This document shows, piece by piece, positions 15,791 through 55,340 of a stretch of DNA of 58,013 bases (its first letter is position 1; the number at the start of each line of letters is the position of its first letter). The notes beneath the pieces are model-generated. The model worked only from the letters and a program-made list of their open reading frames with translations. It had not been told where the DNA came from and did no database searches. Where the stretch lies: the IMG/VR virus record IMGVR_UViG_3300045988_029198, positions 1 to 58,013 of that record, one strand, 5' to 3'. A program made the translations under genes and the position numbers. The stretch comes from a virus. Taxonomy: Duplodnaviria; Heunggongvirae; Uroviricota; Caudoviricetes.

Positions 15791-15852
15791 TGTGGTTAAC
15801 CTTTTCACGAAGCATATACACAGTTTAACACGGGTCTAAAAAGCGACAAACG

Positions 15853-15900
15853 TTTAAAATAATTCTTGACGGATTACACAAGGACGTGTAACCTACAATC
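15853..15900 (+). promoter_or_regulatory. conserved promoter module copy (TTTAAAATAATTCTTGACG) with extended leader shared with the copy at 33201
   Basis: -35 TTGACG about 15866-15871 with AT-rich UP-like element; ~70 bp nearly identical to 33201-33272 including GGAGG RBS. Confidence 0.55.
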
Positions 15901-15924
15901 AACAAAACAACGGAGGGTTACAAA

Positions 15925-16104
15925 ATGGCTACTTTCATCATTCTTTTCTTAATCGGTGCTGTATATCTGATCCCAGCACTCATCGCGATTAACGTTAAAC
16001 ATAAACAACAAACAGCAATTATTTTACTTAACATCTTTGCGGGTTGGACATTCGTCGGTTGGTTAGGTGCGTTAATCTGGTCTGTGTTAAAAAGCGACAA
16101 ATAA
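15925..16104 (+). CDS. small membrane protein, superinfection-immunity-like (Imm_superinfect-type)
   Basis: 59-aa ORF below track cutoff; GGAGGG RBS 7 nt upstream; sequence AIILLNIFAGWTFVGWLGALIWSV; stop is 1 nt before HE1 start. Confidence 0.55.
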   Translation: MATFIILFLIGAVYLIPALIAINVKHKQQTAIILLNIFAGWTFVGWLGALIWSVLKSDK

Positions 16105-16105
16105 G

Positions 16106-17017
16106 ATGAGTAGGAAACGTTTAACCACAGAAGAGTTTATCACGCGTGCCCGTGAAGTTCATGGACACAAATACGATTACTCGCTAGTGGAGTATGTGAA
16201 TTGGCGCACACCTGTGAAAATCATCTGTCCTATACATGGAGTGTTTGAACAAATTCCTAATAATCATTTAAAAGGACGCAAGTGTTTATTCTGTGCAGGA
16301 AATCAACAATCAAATACCAATGAATTTACCACAAGGGGGCGCGAAGTTCATGGGGGTAAGTATGGTTATTCGTTGGTGAAATATAAAGACTCTCGGGCCA
16401 AAGTGAAAATCATTTGTCCGATACACGGAATGTTTGAACAACGTCCATATAGTCACTTGCAGCAAAAAGCAGGTTGCCCACAATGTGCTTGGGAACAACT
16501 GTCTGAACAAAGACGTTTATCCGCCGAAGAATTTATTACCCGTGCTCGCGAAGTTCACGGGGACCGTTACGATTATTCGTTGGTGATGTATGTTAACAAT
16601 TCCACCTCTGTAAAAATCATCTGTCCTGAGCATGGGATGTTTGAACAGGCTCCGAACAATCACACTTCAATGAAAACCGGTTGTCCTCGGTGTTCACAAA
16701 CAGGTTTTAACCCGTCAGAACCCGGTACACTCTACGTGTTAGCTGACGATAAAAAGTGCCCTACTCTGCTTAAAGTCGGTATCACAAACGACTTAAAACG
16801 GCGACTACGACAACTACAACGCGAAACAACACACCCAGTGGTTAAACTCGTGTCGTACCCGTTTCCACACGGCGCTGATGCTTACAAACTGGAACAAGAG
16901 GTACACAAGGTCTTCCGTGAACTTAATGCGCGTCTCAAAGGCTTTGACGGTGCTACAGAGTGGTTTAAATACTCTCCTGCAATCCTCGACTACATAAATG
17001 AAAAAGCCCGGAACTAA
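16106..17017 (+). CDS. T5orf172-domain (GIY-YIG superfamily) putative homing endonuclease with three N-terminal Cys/His repeats
   Basis: 303 aa; three ~45-aa repeats EFITRAREVHGxKYDYSLV...VKIICPIHGxFEQ...C; C-terminal LYVL...KVGITNDLKRRLRQLQ T5orf172-like core. Confidence 0.7.
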   Translation: MSRKRLTTEEFITRAREVHGHKYDYSLVEYVNWRTPVKIICPIHGVFEQIPNNHLKGRKCLFCAGNQQSNTNEFTTRGREVHGGKYGYSLVKYKDSRAKVKIICPIHGMFEQRPYSHLQQKAGCPQCAWEQLSEQRRLSAEEFITRAREVHGDRYDYSLVMYVNNSTSVKIICPEHGMFEQAPNNHTSMKTGCPRCSQTGFNPSEPGTLYVLADDKKCPTLLKVGITNDLKRRLRQLQRETTHPVVKLVSYPFPHGADAYKLEQEVHKVFRELNARLKGFDGATEWFKYSPAILDYINEKARN

Positions 17018-17038
17018 CCGGGCTTATGTTTATTTTTC
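17002..17038. terminator. rho-independent terminator at end of HE1
   Basis: hairpin gcccgg-aactaa-ccgggc flanked by A-run and T-run. Confidence 0.65.
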
Positions 17039-22480: not shown

Positions 22481-22811
22481 CTTGTGATTCACACCATTCA
22501 GCAGCGGCACTTTTACTACTAAACGATTCTGAATTCATCGGCATACCCATAACATAAACATTATAGGTTTTTGGCGCATCACGTCGGATTTCAGCCGCAG
22601 TGGTTGATGCCGATTCTTCGGTTGCTACAGTCACTGGTTCTTCAACAGTCGCAGTAGCTGGTTCAATGTGGCGCATACGCACAAGGGCATTTAAAACAGC
22701 CGGGATAGCTTTTGATGTTGATACTTTATCGCCAGCGGACATCTGTTTACCGTTCCACAGCATCGGGCGGGTGAAAACATATTTCAGTGACGGATCATAT
22801 GAATTACGCAT
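22458..22811 (-). CDS. hypothetical protein (head module)
   Basis: ATG at codon 14 of track ORF; GAGG RBS; directly downstream of the MCP terminator. Confidence 0.45.
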   Translation of the reverse strand: MRNSYDPSLKYVFTRPMLWNGKQMSAGDKVSTSKAIPAVLNALVRMRHIEPATATVEEPVTVATEESASTTAAEIRRDAPKTYNVYVMGMPMNSESFSSKSAAAEWCESQGLTYNYS

Positions 22812-26354: not shown

Positions 26355-26400
26355 CACAGGGTAGTTGTGTCGATGTAATCCGTCAAGAATTATTTTACGT
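26355..26400 (-). promoter_or_regulatory. conserved promoter module copy (minus strand)
   Basis: reverse complement of cgtcaagaattatttta at 26381-26397 gives AAAATAATTCTTGACG. Confidence 0.55.
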
Positions 26401-26682: not shown

Positions 26683-26730
26683 CTTTAAAATAATTCTTGA
26701 CGGATTACAGATGGTAGGGTATCTTTATCA
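26683..26730 (+). promoter_or_regulatory. conserved promoter module copy
   Basis: CTTTAAAATAATTCTTGACG, -35 at 26697-26702. Confidence 0.6.
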
Positions 26731-31590: not shown

Positions 31591-31634
31591 GTTTAAAATA
31601 ATTCTTGACACATTGCAAGCGATCACACTAACAT
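31591..31634 (+). promoter_or_regulatory. conserved promoter module copy
   Basis: GTTTAAAATAATTCTTGACA, 18-bp spacer, TAACAT -10. Confidence 0.65.
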
Positions 31635-32961: not shown

Positions 32962-33210
32962 ATGACGATATTTAAAAACGCAATGGGCGATACTGTCGCG
33001 TATCTGCCGAAAGTCATCATTGCAGATCCATCCTGTGTGGATTACCCACACAGCAAGCAATCTGAAGCGACCTACAACGACCTGTGCACCGATATCATAC
33101 GTGGTTGTGACATCGGTATTGAACGACTTCAGAAACTTCGGGAGGAATACGAAAAACGGTCTGTACAGGCTGCAATGGGCTTACCGCCTGTCTACGATAA
33201 TTTAAAATAA
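32962..33210 (+). CDS. hypothetical protein
   Basis: ATG at codon 4 of track ORF with GGGTG upstream. Confidence 0.4.
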   Translation: MTIFKNAMGDTVAYLPKVIIADPSCVDYPHSKQSEATYNDLCTDIIRGCDIGIERLQKLREEYEKRSVQAAMGLPPVYDNLK

Positions 33211-33250
33211 TTCTTGACGGATTACACAAGGACGTGCAACCTACAAACAT
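33201..33250 (+). promoter_or_regulatory. conserved promoter module copy with extended leader (paralogue of 15853..15924)
   Basis: TTTAAAATAATTCTTGACGGATTACACAAGGACGTG.AACCTACA, near-identical to the copy at 15853. Confidence 0.55.
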
Positions 33251-33272
33251 CAAAACAAAGGAGGACACAATC

Positions 33273-33617
33273 ATGTTATTCGCTATTTTATGGGTTCTTT
33301 TCTCTCTGGTTGTCGCTGGTGTTGCCAAACAAACAGGTCGCAACCCTGGTGCATGGTTCTTTATCGCATTTCTCACAAGTCCTGTGATCGGTGGTCTGAT
33401 TCTGCTAATCGCATATCTGTTTAACGGTAAGGTCGTAAGGGAACAACCGAAAGTGGTAACCACGGGGATGTTCAGCAATTACCTTGCAGCCTATAACTAT
33501 GTCAATGAACATTACATTATTGATACTGACTACCGGGCAGAAGCAGCCAGTGACCTGTTTAAGTATGCTACCTGTCGCGAGGACTGTGATAAACTGATTG
33601 CGAAGTATGTTAACTGA
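33273..33617 (+). CDS. small membrane protein
   Basis: ATG at codon 14 of track ORF, AGGAGG 8 nt upstream; two predicted TM helices. Confidence 0.5.
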   Translation: MLFAILWVLFSLVVAGVAKQTGRNPGAWFFIAFLTSPVIGGLILLIAYLFNGKVVREQPKVVTTGMFSNYLAAYNYVNEHYIIDTDYRAEAASDLFKYATCREDCDKLIAKYVN

Positions 33618-33632
33618 CAGGAGAAGACTTAA

Positions 33633-33965
33633 ATGCGTTTTGAAATTCTTGAACTTGTTAAATATGACAAGACTGCTGCTGAAATTCTGGTTGATGCAGT
33701 TGCTGACAACGAAGTGAAATTTAAACTACTTAACAAGGTCTGGAAATACATTGTAACCACGACTATTGTTGAGCAAGCATCACAGTTTAAAGAAGTTGTT
33801 GCTGATATGTACGCGTTCACTGGCGATGATGAAGTCAAACTGCAATTGCTTGATAAAACGCTGGAACGTGCGATCAACAACAGTTATCCGTTACAGACTC
33901 GTATTCAGACTGCGGTTGATGAAGCGAGTAAATTACTGTCAATCGTGCAGCCTGAAACTAAGTAA
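33633..33965 (+). CDS. hypothetical protein
   Basis: 110 aa; AGGAG RBS. Confidence 0.45.
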   Translation: MRFEILELVKYDKTAAEILVDAVADNEVKFKLLNKVWKYIVTTTIVEQASQFKEVVADMYAFTGDDEVKLQLLDKTLERAINNSYPLQTRIQTAVDEASKLLSIVQPETK

Positions 33966-33972
33966 AAATTAA

Positions 33973-33995
33973 GGGACCAGTAACGGTCCCTTTTT
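33973..33995. terminator. rho-independent terminator between convergent genes
   Basis: gggacc-agtaac-ggtccc then TTTTT. Confidence 0.65.
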
Positions 33996-35354: not shown

Positions 35355-35428
35355 GTTTTACAGGCTCCATACGGTTTACGGTTCTTAACGTATGTTATAT
35401 CAGTGATGGTTTTTTTGCACGGTGTTAA

Positions 35429-35465
35429 AATAATTCTTGACGGATTGCAAACGTGCGATTATGTT
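35429..35465 (+). promoter_or_regulatory. conserved promoter module copy
   Basis: TTAAAATAATTCTTGACG, 17-bp spacer, TATGTT -10. Confidence 0.65.
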
Positions 35466-38891: not shown

Positions 38892-38933
38892 TTTAAAATA
38901 ATTCTTGACGGATTACATAAGTGGTGTCAGAAT
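38892..38933 (+). promoter_or_regulatory. conserved promoter module copy
   Basis: ATTTAAAATAATTCTTGACG, 17-bp spacer, CAGAAT -10. Confidence 0.6.
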
Positions 38934-40188: not shown

Positions 40189-40395
40189 ATGTTCAGATAC
40201 GTTTTAAAATTACTCGCCATTATTGCAACATGGCTGATCATACAGTCCGGGTATGACCTGCGTGTTCGTAACCAATGCTCAGACTATCAACGAATTACAC
40301 GAACTGCGACAATCTACAGTCACGGTATTTGCTATGCTGCAGACAGTGACGGACAATTTAAAATAATTCTTGACGGTTTACACATCATCAGATAG
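40189..40395 (+). CDS. small secreted/membrane-anchored protein
   Basis: ATG at codon 4 of track ORF with AGGAG upstream; hydrophobic N-terminus; 3' end overlaps promoter copy. Confidence 0.45.
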   Translation: MFRYVLKLLAIIATWLIIQSGYDLRVRNQCSDYQRITRTATIYSHGICYAADSDGQFKIILDGLHIIR

Positions 40396-42148: not shown

Positions 42149-42176
42149 AACCCCGGTTAACCCGGGGTTTTTATTT
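42149..42176 (+). terminator. rho-independent terminator
   Basis: ccccgg-ttaac-ccgggg then TTTTTATTT. Confidence 0.65.
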
Positions 42177-42178
42177 AA

Positions 42179-42216
42179 AATAATTCTTGACGAATTACAG
42201 TAAAACAACCTATAAT
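42179..42216 (+). promoter_or_regulatory. conserved promoter module copy, near-consensus sigma70
   Basis: AAAATAATTCTTGACG, 18-bp spacer, TATAAT at 42211-42216. Confidence 0.7.
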
Positions 42217-47731: not shown

Positions 47732-47775
47732 ATTATCGGGTGGGGTTGGTAATCTGTCAAGAATTATTTTGAACT
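47732..47775 (-). promoter_or_regulatory. conserved promoter module copy (minus strand) for ParB-like operon
   Basis: reverse complement gives AAAATAATTCTTGACA, 17-bp spacer, GATAAT -10; 8-bp-stem hairpin in the 5' UTR. Confidence 0.65.
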
Positions 47776-50358: not shown

Positions 50359-50398
50359 ACTATAGCGCACATATCTGTAATTCGTCAAGAATTATTTT
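50359..50398 (-). promoter_or_regulatory. conserved promoter module copy (minus strand)
   Basis: reverse complement gives AAAATAATTCTTGACG, 18-bp spacer, TATAGT -10. Confidence 0.65.
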
Positions 50399-50417
50399 AC
50401 ACATCCTTGTGCAATGA

Positions 50418-53580: not shown

Positions 53581-55242
53581 TCAGATTAATGAACTTGCAA
53601 CCCTTGCGGCGAGTTCATTAGCTTCACGAGTACGTAACCCCTGAGCGCTAAGTACATCAACACCAAACACCCTGTAAAACATCTTGTAAGCGTCATCAAC
53701 GGGTATACCTTTATCACGCTGAATACCGGCCCATGTGGTAATCATGCTACGTAATTTACGTTGTGCATCGTTCATTGCCTGAATGTTTTTCATTGCACTG
53801 TAAGCTGCAACAGGGGGTGCACCAGCGTTTAACATTTGTTCTTTTACCGCAACAGGGTCACGGTCGATTATCACAACTGCCCTGCGTAATTCTTCCAGTT
53901 CTTCAGGTGTCAGTTCACGTAAATTACCTTCTACACGATCCGGGCCTGAGCGTTCGGCTTTTTCAGGAACATGACCACAATACGGGCAGCACGGCAGACC
54001 AGACGGATAAGGCTTCAGACACGGTGGAATACCGTTATCAGGATCACCCTTGTTTGTACACGTTGTGTTACTGTTCCCACTGCTGTTTGATGAACGACGG
54101 TCACGGTCATCTAAAGACCAGTTGTAGTGCTGATCGGGAAGTGGAAAACCACGGGCCAGAAATCGACGAACATTACCGACTTTATCAATAATCAGTGCTT
54201 TTTTACCGGGTTTGAAACGCAACGGTCGGCCCATTTGTTGTACAAACAAAGAGTAAGATTCTGTTGGACGGTCCATTACAGCACATTCCATCGCCGGGCA
54301 ATCGTACCCTTCACCGAATAAATCGTTGTTACATAGCACGAGTGTTTTACGTCGTTCAAAACGTTCCAGAATATCCGCTCGTTCCTGATTGCTGTTTCGT
54401 GAGCTGATCGCCTCTGCAGGAATGCCAGCATCGCGAAATTCTTTTGCCAGTGCTTCAGCAGAATCTACGTCACACGTAAAAACAACAGTGAGTAAGCCAT
54501 CTGCATATGTTTTCCACGTACTGACGGTATCACCAACGATGTTTGAATCTTCCATCGCTTTTTTTAACGCAGAGGGTTTGTAATCACCCGTAGTATGGGA
54601 AATCATTTCTACAGTTAATTCCAGGTCTGTTTCAGCCATAATCAGGCGATAATCAGCCAGGTGTTGTTGACTGATTAACTCACGCATTGACGGACCAATG
54701 ATCATCTGATCTGCGTAACCTGACGCATGACGACCCAAGCCTTTACCGTCAGCACGGATCGGTGTAGCTGTAACACCCAGACCTTTAGCGTTAGGGAATT
54801 TTTCCCGGCAGTCTCCCCACTGTGTGCCACGCACCAGGTGATGCGCTTCGTCGCTGAACACAAGAGACACGTCGTTGTACCATCGTTCGTACTGTTTTGT
54901 TCTTAACGTTTGTGAACTGGTAATAACGATGTCAGCACCGGGGGAATAGGTACTGTAACCAAGCGTTTTCATCTGCTGATTAGTTGCAAACTTAACAGTA
55001 TCTTTTTGCGCTATAAATCTGTGTGGTAATCCCTGGCGAGCAACAGCCATTGCGATTTGACTAACCAGTTCTTTACGGTGTGCCTGGATGACTTTTACAC
55101 CGTCTCTTGTTTTTACCAGTTCAGACATACAGAACGTTTTTCCTGCCCCCGTGGGAAGCACAAGAATCACGTCGTCAGCACCGCTTGACCATGCCTGACA
55201 TACGTTATTGATAGCTTCAGTCTGATAATAACGAGCTTTCAT
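53581..55242 (-). CDS. superfamily 2 DNA helicase (DEAD/DEAH-box, ResIII-like) with C-terminal zinc ribbon
   Basis: 553 aa; Walker A PTGAGKT, DEAH box FSDEAHH, CCPYCGH. Confidence 0.75.
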   Translation of the reverse strand: MKARYYQTEAINNVCQAWSSGADDVILVLPTGAGKTFCMSELVKTRDGVKVIQAHRKELVSQIAMAVARQGLPHRFIAQKDTVKFATNQQMKTLGYSTYSPGADIVITSSQTLRTKQYERWYNDVSLVFSDEAHHLVRGTQWGDCREKFPNAKGLGVTATPIRADGKGLGRHASGYADQMIIGPSMRELISQQHLADYRLIMAETDLELTVEMISHTTGDYKPSALKKAMEDSNIVGDTVSTWKTYADGLLTVVFTCDVDSAEALAKEFRDAGIPAEAISSRNSNQERADILERFERRKTLVLCNNDLFGEGYDCPAMECAVMDRPTESYSLFVQQMGRPLRFKPGKKALIIDKVGNVRRFLARGFPLPDQHYNWSLDDRDRRSSNSSGNSNTTCTNKGDPDNGIPPCLKPYPSGLPCCPYCGHVPEKAERSGPDRVEGNLRELTPEELEELRRAVVIIDRDPVAVKEQMLNAGAPPVAAYSAMKNIQAMNDAQRKLRSMITTWAGIQRDKGIPVDDAYKMFYRVFGVDVLSAQGLRTREANELAARVASSLI

Positions 55243-55274: not shown

Positions 55275-55318
55275 GTTTAAAATAGTTCTTGACGCATTGC
55301 AACTTATTCCTCTAACAT
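55275..55318 (+). promoter_or_regulatory. conserved promoter module copy (variant AAAATAGTTCTTGACG)
   Basis: -35 at 55289-55294, 18-bp spacer, TAACAT -10. Confidence 0.6.
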
Positions 55319-55340
55319 CTGCATCAACGAAAGGTGAGTG

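Follow-up and report, generated by a model that had tools for sequence, protein, structure and literature searches.

Probable reuse of one subtype of a repeated promoter ahead of two unrelated small membrane-protein genes in a 9NA-like siphophage

Two stretches of about 70 base pairs (bp) in a tailed phage genome (IMG/VR record IMGVR_UViG_3300045988_029198; its full 58,013 nucleotides (nt) are referred to here as the window) are nearly identical, although each precedes a different gene for a small membrane protein. An initial annotation made from the DNA alone had read them as a promoter-leader cassette carrying a shared operator or RNA element that co-regulates candidate superinfection-exclusion functions. 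Our analysis indicates that their likeness probably reflects promoter reuse by recombination and common descent, not a dedicated shared switch. The two stretches, copies A and B, would be paralogous copies of one subtype of a repeated sigma-70-type promoter for the host RNA polymerase, which 9NA-like phages appear to set before many small transcription units. Each copy would be a self-contained expression cassette of ~72 bp running from an A/T-rich UP-like element to the Shine-Dalgarno sequence (SD), and would have been copied to new genes by recombination at a 26-nt core, with breakpoints at gene starts acting as module boundaries. Copy A would have arrived with, or been assembled into, a mobile 1.16-kb promoter-imm-endonuclease unit ending at a terminator, while copy B would serve as a dispensable booster promoter inside the dUTPase operon, in front of a core gene for a membrane protein.

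The window is the near-complete genome of a siphophage of the 9NA-like group (Nonanavirus/Sashavirus). Its identity is 94-96% to the Escherichia phages KarinMuster_Bas82 (Bas82), PJ16, PDP46 and AVIO78A and to two 'Sashavirus' assemblies, with about 94% for Bas82. More remote kin are the Salmonella phages Sasha, Sergei, Solent and 9NA and a set of Klebsiella phages. The window is oriented as the reverse complement of the relatives' records. The - strand carries its structural genes, among which many small + strand gene units are interspersed, a layout already remarked on in the 9NA genome announcement.

Two cassettes of one promoter subtype

The two cassettes are:
15853-15924, + strand: cassette copy A (sequence, alignment, family search)
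33201-33272, + strand: cassette copy B (sequence, alignment)

Pairwise alignment of the two copies gave 61 of 65 identical positions through GGAGG. The identity is split between the family core (26/26) and the remainder (35/46, ungapped), and the 8 nt from the SD to the ATG differ (GTTACAAA vs ACACAATC). Chance duplication was ruled out by shuffles, since the 23-mer TTGACGGATTACACAAGGACGTG occurs exactly twice in the window with 0 occurrences expected. The near-identity first noticed was therefore borne out by both the alignment and the 23-mer search. Each cassette starts 72 nt before an ATG (15925 and 33273). Copy A comprises an UP-like element (15853-15865), a −35 hexamer TTGACG (15866-15871), a 17-bp spacer (15872-15888), a −10 hexamer TAACCT (15889-15894) and the SD (15912-15916). 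Copy B has the −35 TTGACG at 33214-33219, the spacer at 33220-33236, the −10 CAACCT at 33237-33242 and the SD at 33260-33264; the TAA stop codon (33208-33210) of the upstream 85-amino-acid (aa) gene falls within its UP-like element. In both copies the −35 matches TTGACA at 5/6 positions and GGAGG stands 8 nt ahead of the ATG. The −10 matches the consensus at 3/6 positions in A, which keeps −12T, −11A and −7T, and at 2/6 in B, whose T-to-C change at the first position is seen in the window alone.

Transcription is predicted to start ~7 nt past the −10, at ~15901 in A and ~33249 in B, giving both transcripts a predicted A/C-rich 5' untranslated region (5'UTR) of ~24 nt. The stretch GGATTACACAAGGACGTG.AACCTACA, originally labelled a conserved leader, is instead made up of promoter spacer, −10 hexamer and start-site region and would be mostly untranscribed. 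This bears on the proposal that the conserved stretch is a transcribed cis-regulatory leader on both mRNAs, such as a riboswitch, a thermosensor or a small-RNA target. Both mRNAs would indeed share the A/C-rich AACAAAACAA(C/A)GGAGG, and a hairpin could form from the spacer dyad of copy A if untranscribed promoter sequence were included. However, the TTGACG-17-TAACCT arrangement leaves most of the stretch outside the transcript, the predicted 5' ends fold no better than shuffled sequences (z = -1.03 for A and +0.20 for B), Rfam gave no match anywhere in the window, and A/C-rich leaders ahead of the SD are usual in the promoter family, being found in most of its members. The folding comparison and the Rfam search were thus both negative for an RNA element of the kind initially proposed, and we regard a regulatory leader in any form as hardly credible.

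The 26-nt promoter core TTTAAAATAATTCTTGACGGATTACA is present in 13 copies in the window, and the search pattern TTTAAAATAATTCTTGAC, which covers the first 18 nt, returned 13 matches where 0.15 were expected. Lined up, all 13 copies have in common TTTAAAATAATTCTTGAC(G)GATT(A/G)CA and diverge afterwards. Eleven of them agree with A and B through the first ~26 nt only; just A and B continue to match in the remainder of the spacer, the −10, the short A/C-rich 5'UTR and the SD. When the 46 non-core nt were compared over all 78 pairs of copies, the median identity was 33% and the runner-up pair reached 52%, against 76% for A and B. The match between A and B is thus longer than that of the other promoter copies, as had been claimed, and the two copies are a real subfamily of the promoter family. 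In all 13 copies the A/T-rich UP-like sequence TTTAAAATAATTC abuts the −35 on its upstream side. The spacer is 17-18 bp long, and the −10 has the form TAnnnT, with hexamers ranging from TATAAT to TACCCT; CAGAAT and GATAAT, at 38892 and 47773, are first-position exceptions. The eleven further members, identified by the pattern search, are:

26374-26399, - strand: family promoter core (pattern search)
26684-26709, + strand: family promoter core (pattern search)
31592-31617, + strand: family promoter core preceding the dUTPase operon, which continues into copy B (pattern search)
35424-35449, + strand: family promoter core (pattern search)
38892-38917, + strand: family promoter core at the TerL-adjacent hypervariable locus, where PDP46 has an A-type cassette
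40357-40382, + strand: family promoter core (pattern search)
42174-42199, + strand: family promoter core with a terminator hairpin just upstream
47748-47773, - strand: family promoter core (pattern search)
50376-50401, - strand: family promoter core downstream of the primase gene (pattern search)
55276-55301, + strand: family promoter core, upstream one of a tandem pair
55339-55364, + strand: family promoter core, downstream one of the tandem pair

The tandem promoters at 55276-55364 lie 63 bp apart ahead of one gene and are kept in 5/5 genomes. Near 26684, Bas82 has a gene annotated 'RDF', considered as a candidate regulator, where the window has a different, lipoprotein-like open reading frame (ORF). 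A degenerate family-like sequence, TTTTAAATAATTCTATACGGTTTACC, is kept in Bas82 (oriented position 22516, - strand), BDX09P1, 536P12 and PDP46. A search of the window that allowed up to 5 mismatches did not find it; it may be a dead promoter copy.

The core of the dyad type, to which A and B belong, is limited to the 9NA-like group, where it was found in 28 phage records. An exact search for it in 185,579 representative bacterial or archaeal genomes gave no match, and a host origin of the promoter was rejected on this basis. A scan of IMG/VR with the 15-mer AAAATAATTCTTGAC was discarded as unspecific, the hits listed being mostly unrelated contigs, and a 20-base pattern was used instead.

Probable promoter reuse among relatives and the two units

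One indication of reuse comes from PDP46, in which an A-type cassette, 97% identical up to the ATG (...GGAGGGTTACAAATATG), stands at the TerL-adjacent locus orthologous to window position 38892. The gene behind it (2574-3227) encodes a 217-aa alanine-rich soluble protein with no hydrophobic segment; the C-terminal third of this protein is a long run of AARAAYAAD-like alanine-rich repeats. The cassette is, as judged from the encoded product, not tied to membrane or exclusion genes. The TerL-adjacent locus holds four different cassettes in five genomes, all of which begin right after the conserved promoter half.

Clustering of the upstream flank, the downstream half of the promoter and the gene start was carried out for 70 promoter instances from five complete genomes. 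One flank was joined to up to four promoter halves, one promoter half to up to three flanks, and one promoter half to up to three genes. Different genes follow one and the same promoter half in the A/B type and also in at least four further subtypes. In 536P12 (oriented position 54881) the upstream flank of the 40357 type is joined to the downstream half of the 42174 type, a fusion that is a putative promoter-to-promoter deletion by recombination inside the conserved core. At locus 42174 itself the spacer and −10 are of the TATAAT type in the window and the spacer is of the dyad type in relatives. The recombinant combinations, like the anatomy of the cassettes and their distribution among relatives, are matters of direct observation.

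Recombination between promoter copies clearly occurs in the group, and the 26-nt core hardly varies among 61 family copies; both facts would suit a process in which the likeness of A and B is kept up by ongoing gene conversion (concerted evolution) within each genome and does not go back to a single older duplication. Yet every genome shows the same fixed differences between A and B (T/A, A/T, C/A and the SD-ATG spacer), and lineage-specific changes have arisen separately in the two copies: BDX09P1 has TTGCACAATGGTGTG in A and TTACACAAGGACGTG in B, and changes in A have no counterpart in the B copy of that genome. Ongoing conversion is very improbable on these grounds.

Copy A is part of an insertion in antisense orientation between the tail-chaperone and tape-measure genes, which has the following features:

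15833-16993, + strand: 1.16-kb insertion consisting of an imm 3' remnant, cassette A, imm and the endonuclease gene (blastn of the PDP46 region against the window)
15837-15850, + strand: left copy of the 14-bp perfect direct repeat TAAAAAGCGACAAA (repeat search)
15925-16104, + strand: gene for a 59-aa membrane protein of the Imm_superinfect family (Pfam, PHROG, hydropathy)
16106-17017, + strand: gene for a 303-aa free-standing homing-type endonuclease (profile search, repeat search)
17004-17025, unstranded: bidirectional terminator-like hairpin closing the imm-endonuclease unit

The insertion starts with a 20-nt stretch, followed by cassette A, imm and the endonuclease gene. Its boundaries are defined by the empty site of PDP46, where the tail-chaperone and tape-measure genes are 71 bp apart and the sequence reads CAGTTTAACACG/TTAACCATAATATATGAAAAAGCCCGG. 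The unit is carried by the window, Bas82, BDX09P1, 536P12, PJ16 and one IMG/VR contig and is missing from PDP46, AVIO78A, Sasha, Sergei and Solent. The hairpin at 17004-17025, between the tail-chaperone and tape-measure genes, is also found in relatives that lack the insertion, for example at the empty site of PDP46, so that the hairpin itself interrupts the late structural operon. The right copy of TAAAAAGCGACAAA (16088-16101) supplies the final codons of imm, so that promoter A and imm are enclosed by the two copies; the left copy looks like an orphan remnant of the 3' end of imm. The arrangement points to an earlier duplication or recombination involving promoter-imm units and suggests that such units once stood in tandem or that there was a circular intermediate.

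The 59-aa product is Imm-like, as initially proposed: it scores 62.4 bits against PF14373 (gathering cut-off 27.9, E = 3.6e-17), belongs to phrog_1039 and has two hydrophobic segments by hydropathy. Homologues are present in 190 phage records, with ~47% identity in many siphoviruses, and Bas82 annotates its imm gene as a moron. T4 Imm, the PF14373 protein of phage T4, is 83 aa long; the 59-aa product resembles it in scoring well above the family cut-off and in its two hydrophobic segments and differs in being shorter. In Escherichia phage Bas77 (Skatevirus, an unrelated siphovirus genus), an imm homologue lies in an opposite-strand mini-cluster (2175-3098) between the major tail and tape-measure genes, and antisense placement of imm in the tail module appears recurrent.

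The endonuclease has three DUF723 zinc-finger repeats, which correspond to three internal repeats of ~150 nt, and a T5orf172 (GIY-YIG-like) domain (53 bits); its ORF ends within the terminator hairpin. Homologues occur in 618 phage records, often at several places per genome, and these domains together with the sporadic distribution fit a free-standing homing-type enzyme. Among close relatives its amino acid identity is 75-83%, compared with 93-95% identity for the neighbouring imm. In PJ16 and BDX09P1 it is matched in two pieces, and the gene may be in decay.

Copy B has a different setting. It lies within the operon begun by the 31592 promoter and is followed by:

33273-33617, + strand: gene for a 114-aa protein (phrog_27401; hydropathy)
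33633-33965, + strand: 110-aa DUF2560/phrog_571 gene, the second in the copy B unit
33971-33992, unstranded: bidirectional terminator-like hairpin between the copy B unit and the convergent portal gene

Hairpins of this kind close both units. The 114-aa product is, as had been stated, a small membrane protein, with two N-terminal hydrophobic segments and a soluble tail of ~60 aa; it has no Pfam match at E <= 0.1. The gene is core in the 9NA-like group, being present in all 24 relatives at 51-97% identity, and a partial match (54% of the protein, 38.7% identity) was found in the unrelated 47.5-kb Klebsiella phage vB_Ko_K70PH128C1. BLASTP yielded no alignment between the 114-aa and 59-aa proteins, in agreement with the initial view that the downstream genes are unrelated. 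Both have weak common matches to phrog_8436 over their hydrophobic segments (E ~1e-3); homology of the two was rejected, as these matches were judged compositional, BLASTP gave nothing and PF14373 fits the 59-aa protein alone. The Imm-family protein and the core 114-aa protein are reasonable candidates for exclusion or other envelope functions.

The orthologous genes of 9NA and Sergei directly adjoin each other, and no promoter precedes the orthologue of the 114-aa gene; promoter B would be dispensable because these phages do without it. Compared with them, the window has a 74-bp cassette in place of 19 bp; one junction directly follows the conserved ...PPV(Y/F)D codons, and the other coincides with the ATG. 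The Klebsiella-type relatives have a promoter at locus B with the same core and spacer ACACATGGACGTG and another −10 and leader. On these comparisons the dyad-type core is old, and the −10 and leader specific to A and B occur only in the subgroup of E. coli phages. Copy B also carries substitutions in its −35 or −10 in 4/5 complete genomes, including the window; the variants are TTGATG (Bas82, 536P12), TAGACG (BDX09P1), CAACCT (window) and, in one metagenomic contig, TCGACG. All 61 of the 61 other family promoters in the five genomes keep TTGAC. Copy B thus appears to be weakening or under relaxed selection and, being mutated, is not maintained together with A as a matched pair.

These observations do not favor co-regulation of exclusion functions: the cassette of PDP46 drives a soluble protein, the cassette is absent before the 114-aa orthologue in 9NA and Sergei, the core of copy B is mutated in four of five genomes, and reuse is seen for at least four other subtypes. 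What stands of the cassette first described is a pair of paralogous promoter/5'UTR/SD copies before non-homologous membrane-protein genes; what is not supported is the dedicated operator or RNA element.

The spacer dyad and the question of a shared operator

Two dyad features deserve description:

15874-15891, unstranded: perfect dyad TTACAC-N6-GTGTAA, spanning spacer and the first 3 bases of the −10 of copy A
50397-50415, - strand: third copy of the dyad-type spacer, ATTGCACAAGGATGTGTAA, starting 2 nt after the primase stop codon

The third copy overlaps the promoter at 50401(-): its final five bases, TGTAA, also open that promoter's UP-like element, TGTAAAATAATTC. 9NA has the identical sequence; Klebsiella-type relatives lack it and have a single promoter with a related spacer there. 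A working tandem promoter at 50397-50415 was rejected, as no acceptable −35 lies upstream (TTAGTC, 2/6), and the sequence is read as a probable remnant of an older promoter left by promoter-promoter recombination at GTGTAAAAT.

The dyad could also be an operator, bound by a phage or host DNA-binding protein that governs a small regulon made up of imm, the 114-aa gene and the terS-proximal early unit of relatives. Its symmetry is perfect (6-6-6) in A and 5/6 in one arm of B (33222-33239, GTGCAA), and the third 19-mer, placed differently with respect to its promoter, is unchanged in 9NA where the surrounding 191-nt region is 88% identical. The inner arms CAC/GTG are invariant and four of the six central positions vary in 23 distinct orthologous promoters, which were picked by downstream features and are related by descent. 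However, this conservation is not independent evidence, because the sequences share descent, and few bases are free to carry a signal: most of the left arm is GGATTACA, which the whole family shares, and the right arm runs into the TA of the −10. The substitutions are indistinguishable from a uniform distribution (~9 events on 6/13 positions, 6.7 expected), dyad-like matches with up to 2 mismatches are not enriched genome-wide (7 vs 5.05 expected), and a 19-mer would stay unchanged at 12% divergence with a chance of ~0.09. No cognate regulator was found, no systematic helix-turn-helix scan of the window ORFs having been made, and to our knowledge a GalR/LacI-type half-site, a TyrR box and a CRP site do not fit the dyad in arm order and spacing. 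The same core drives a soluble protein in PDP46, and copy B is decaying at both −35 and −10. An operator function is, in sum, unlikely.

Several points weigh against promoter reuse and descent as a full account. At locus B the dyad-type spacer is conserved at 16/17 positions between the E. coli-type and Klebsiella-type phages, in keeping with an operator, while flanks and leader have diverged; this conservation could reflect function beyond descent. A simple consensus promoter scanner calls neither A nor B, owing to too few matches in the −10. We infer promoter activity, the start sites and the direction and mechanism of copying from sequence features. Finally, nothing but selection for working fusions explains why the junction falls precisely at the ATG in three contexts. 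On another reading, the ~72-bp unit would be a discrete, actively propagating cassette of promoter and ribosome-binding site, put repeatedly and exactly at the start codons of unrelated genes in 9NA-like phages, in which the dyad spacer is a phage regulator's site or a handle for copying, for example by endonuclease-linked co-conversion or minicircle exchange. We consider such a cassette decidedly unlikely, and favor reuse of a family promoter by recombination at its core.

Relation to known systems and meaning

The kind of feature described here is known: repeated promoters as module boundaries, promoter reuse and moron-like units with a homing endonuclease. None of the records inspected annotates this particular promoter family or its A/B subtype as such. 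AVIO78A has only generic consensus promoters marked, with copy B unmarked, and the Sergei record has none marked. The 9NA genome announcement and the BASEL paper make no mention of the family, and text searches for the motif, which did not cover Zeng et al. (2019, J Virol), found no description of it.

The closest parallel is with the PeSL (promoter-early stem-loop) motifs of T4-like phages (Arbiol et al. 2010; Comeau, Arbiol & Krisch 2014, PMC4122927). In both cases a repeated conserved promoter motif flanks small variable genes among core genes and marks breakpoints at which unrelated sequences are swapped between close relatives, as seen here across five genomes. Unlike PeSLs, copies A and B have no stem-loop directly upstream, a hairpin being found at some copies only (e.g., 42174); the phage is a 58-kb siphovirus, and the conserved unit takes in the 5'UTR and the SD and extends as far as the ATG. 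A possible trace of a PeSL-like minicircle is the 14-bp direct repeat that flanks promoter A and imm, which is only suggestive.

Putative mobile promoters and promoter propagation have been described in prokaryotes (Matus-Garcia et al. 2012, PMC3488235; PMC3575422), where near-identical promoters likewise stand before non-homologous genes, within one genome and among its kin. That work concerned bacterial chromosomes, often with links to transposable elements, whereas a promoter family of 13-15 members in a virulent phage is considered here.

Morons, a concept of Juhala and Hendrix, are promoter-gene-terminator insertions in lambdoid phages. The copy A unit resembles them as an autonomous insertion of promoter, genes and terminator between two tail genes in some close relatives. 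It differs in that a virulent phage has no prophage expression and in that the unit also contains a homing-type endonuclease; the copy B gene differs further, being core in all 24 relatives with only its promoter varying. The early promoters of T4 and T5 are of the extended-consensus type, with UP-like elements. They share with the present family a strong −35, an A/T-rich upstream element, conservation past the hexamers and many copies per genome, but we found no described counterpart of the invariant 8 nt after the −35 (GGATTACA) or of the subtype-specific spacers.

The 26-nt motif can serve as an annotation marker for the starts of transcription units in this group, for which GenBank records mark few or none. 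The A/B pair also carries a caution, in that shared upstream sequence is no evidence of shared function. The promoter family would account for the scattered small opposite-strand units among the structural genes of 9NA-like phages, which were left unexplained in the 9NA announcement. The two cassettes offer a small-scale example of how a virulent siphophage may wire new or resident genes into transcription by means of a ready-made promoter/5'UTR/SD module, with the promoter core doubling as a recombination boundary.

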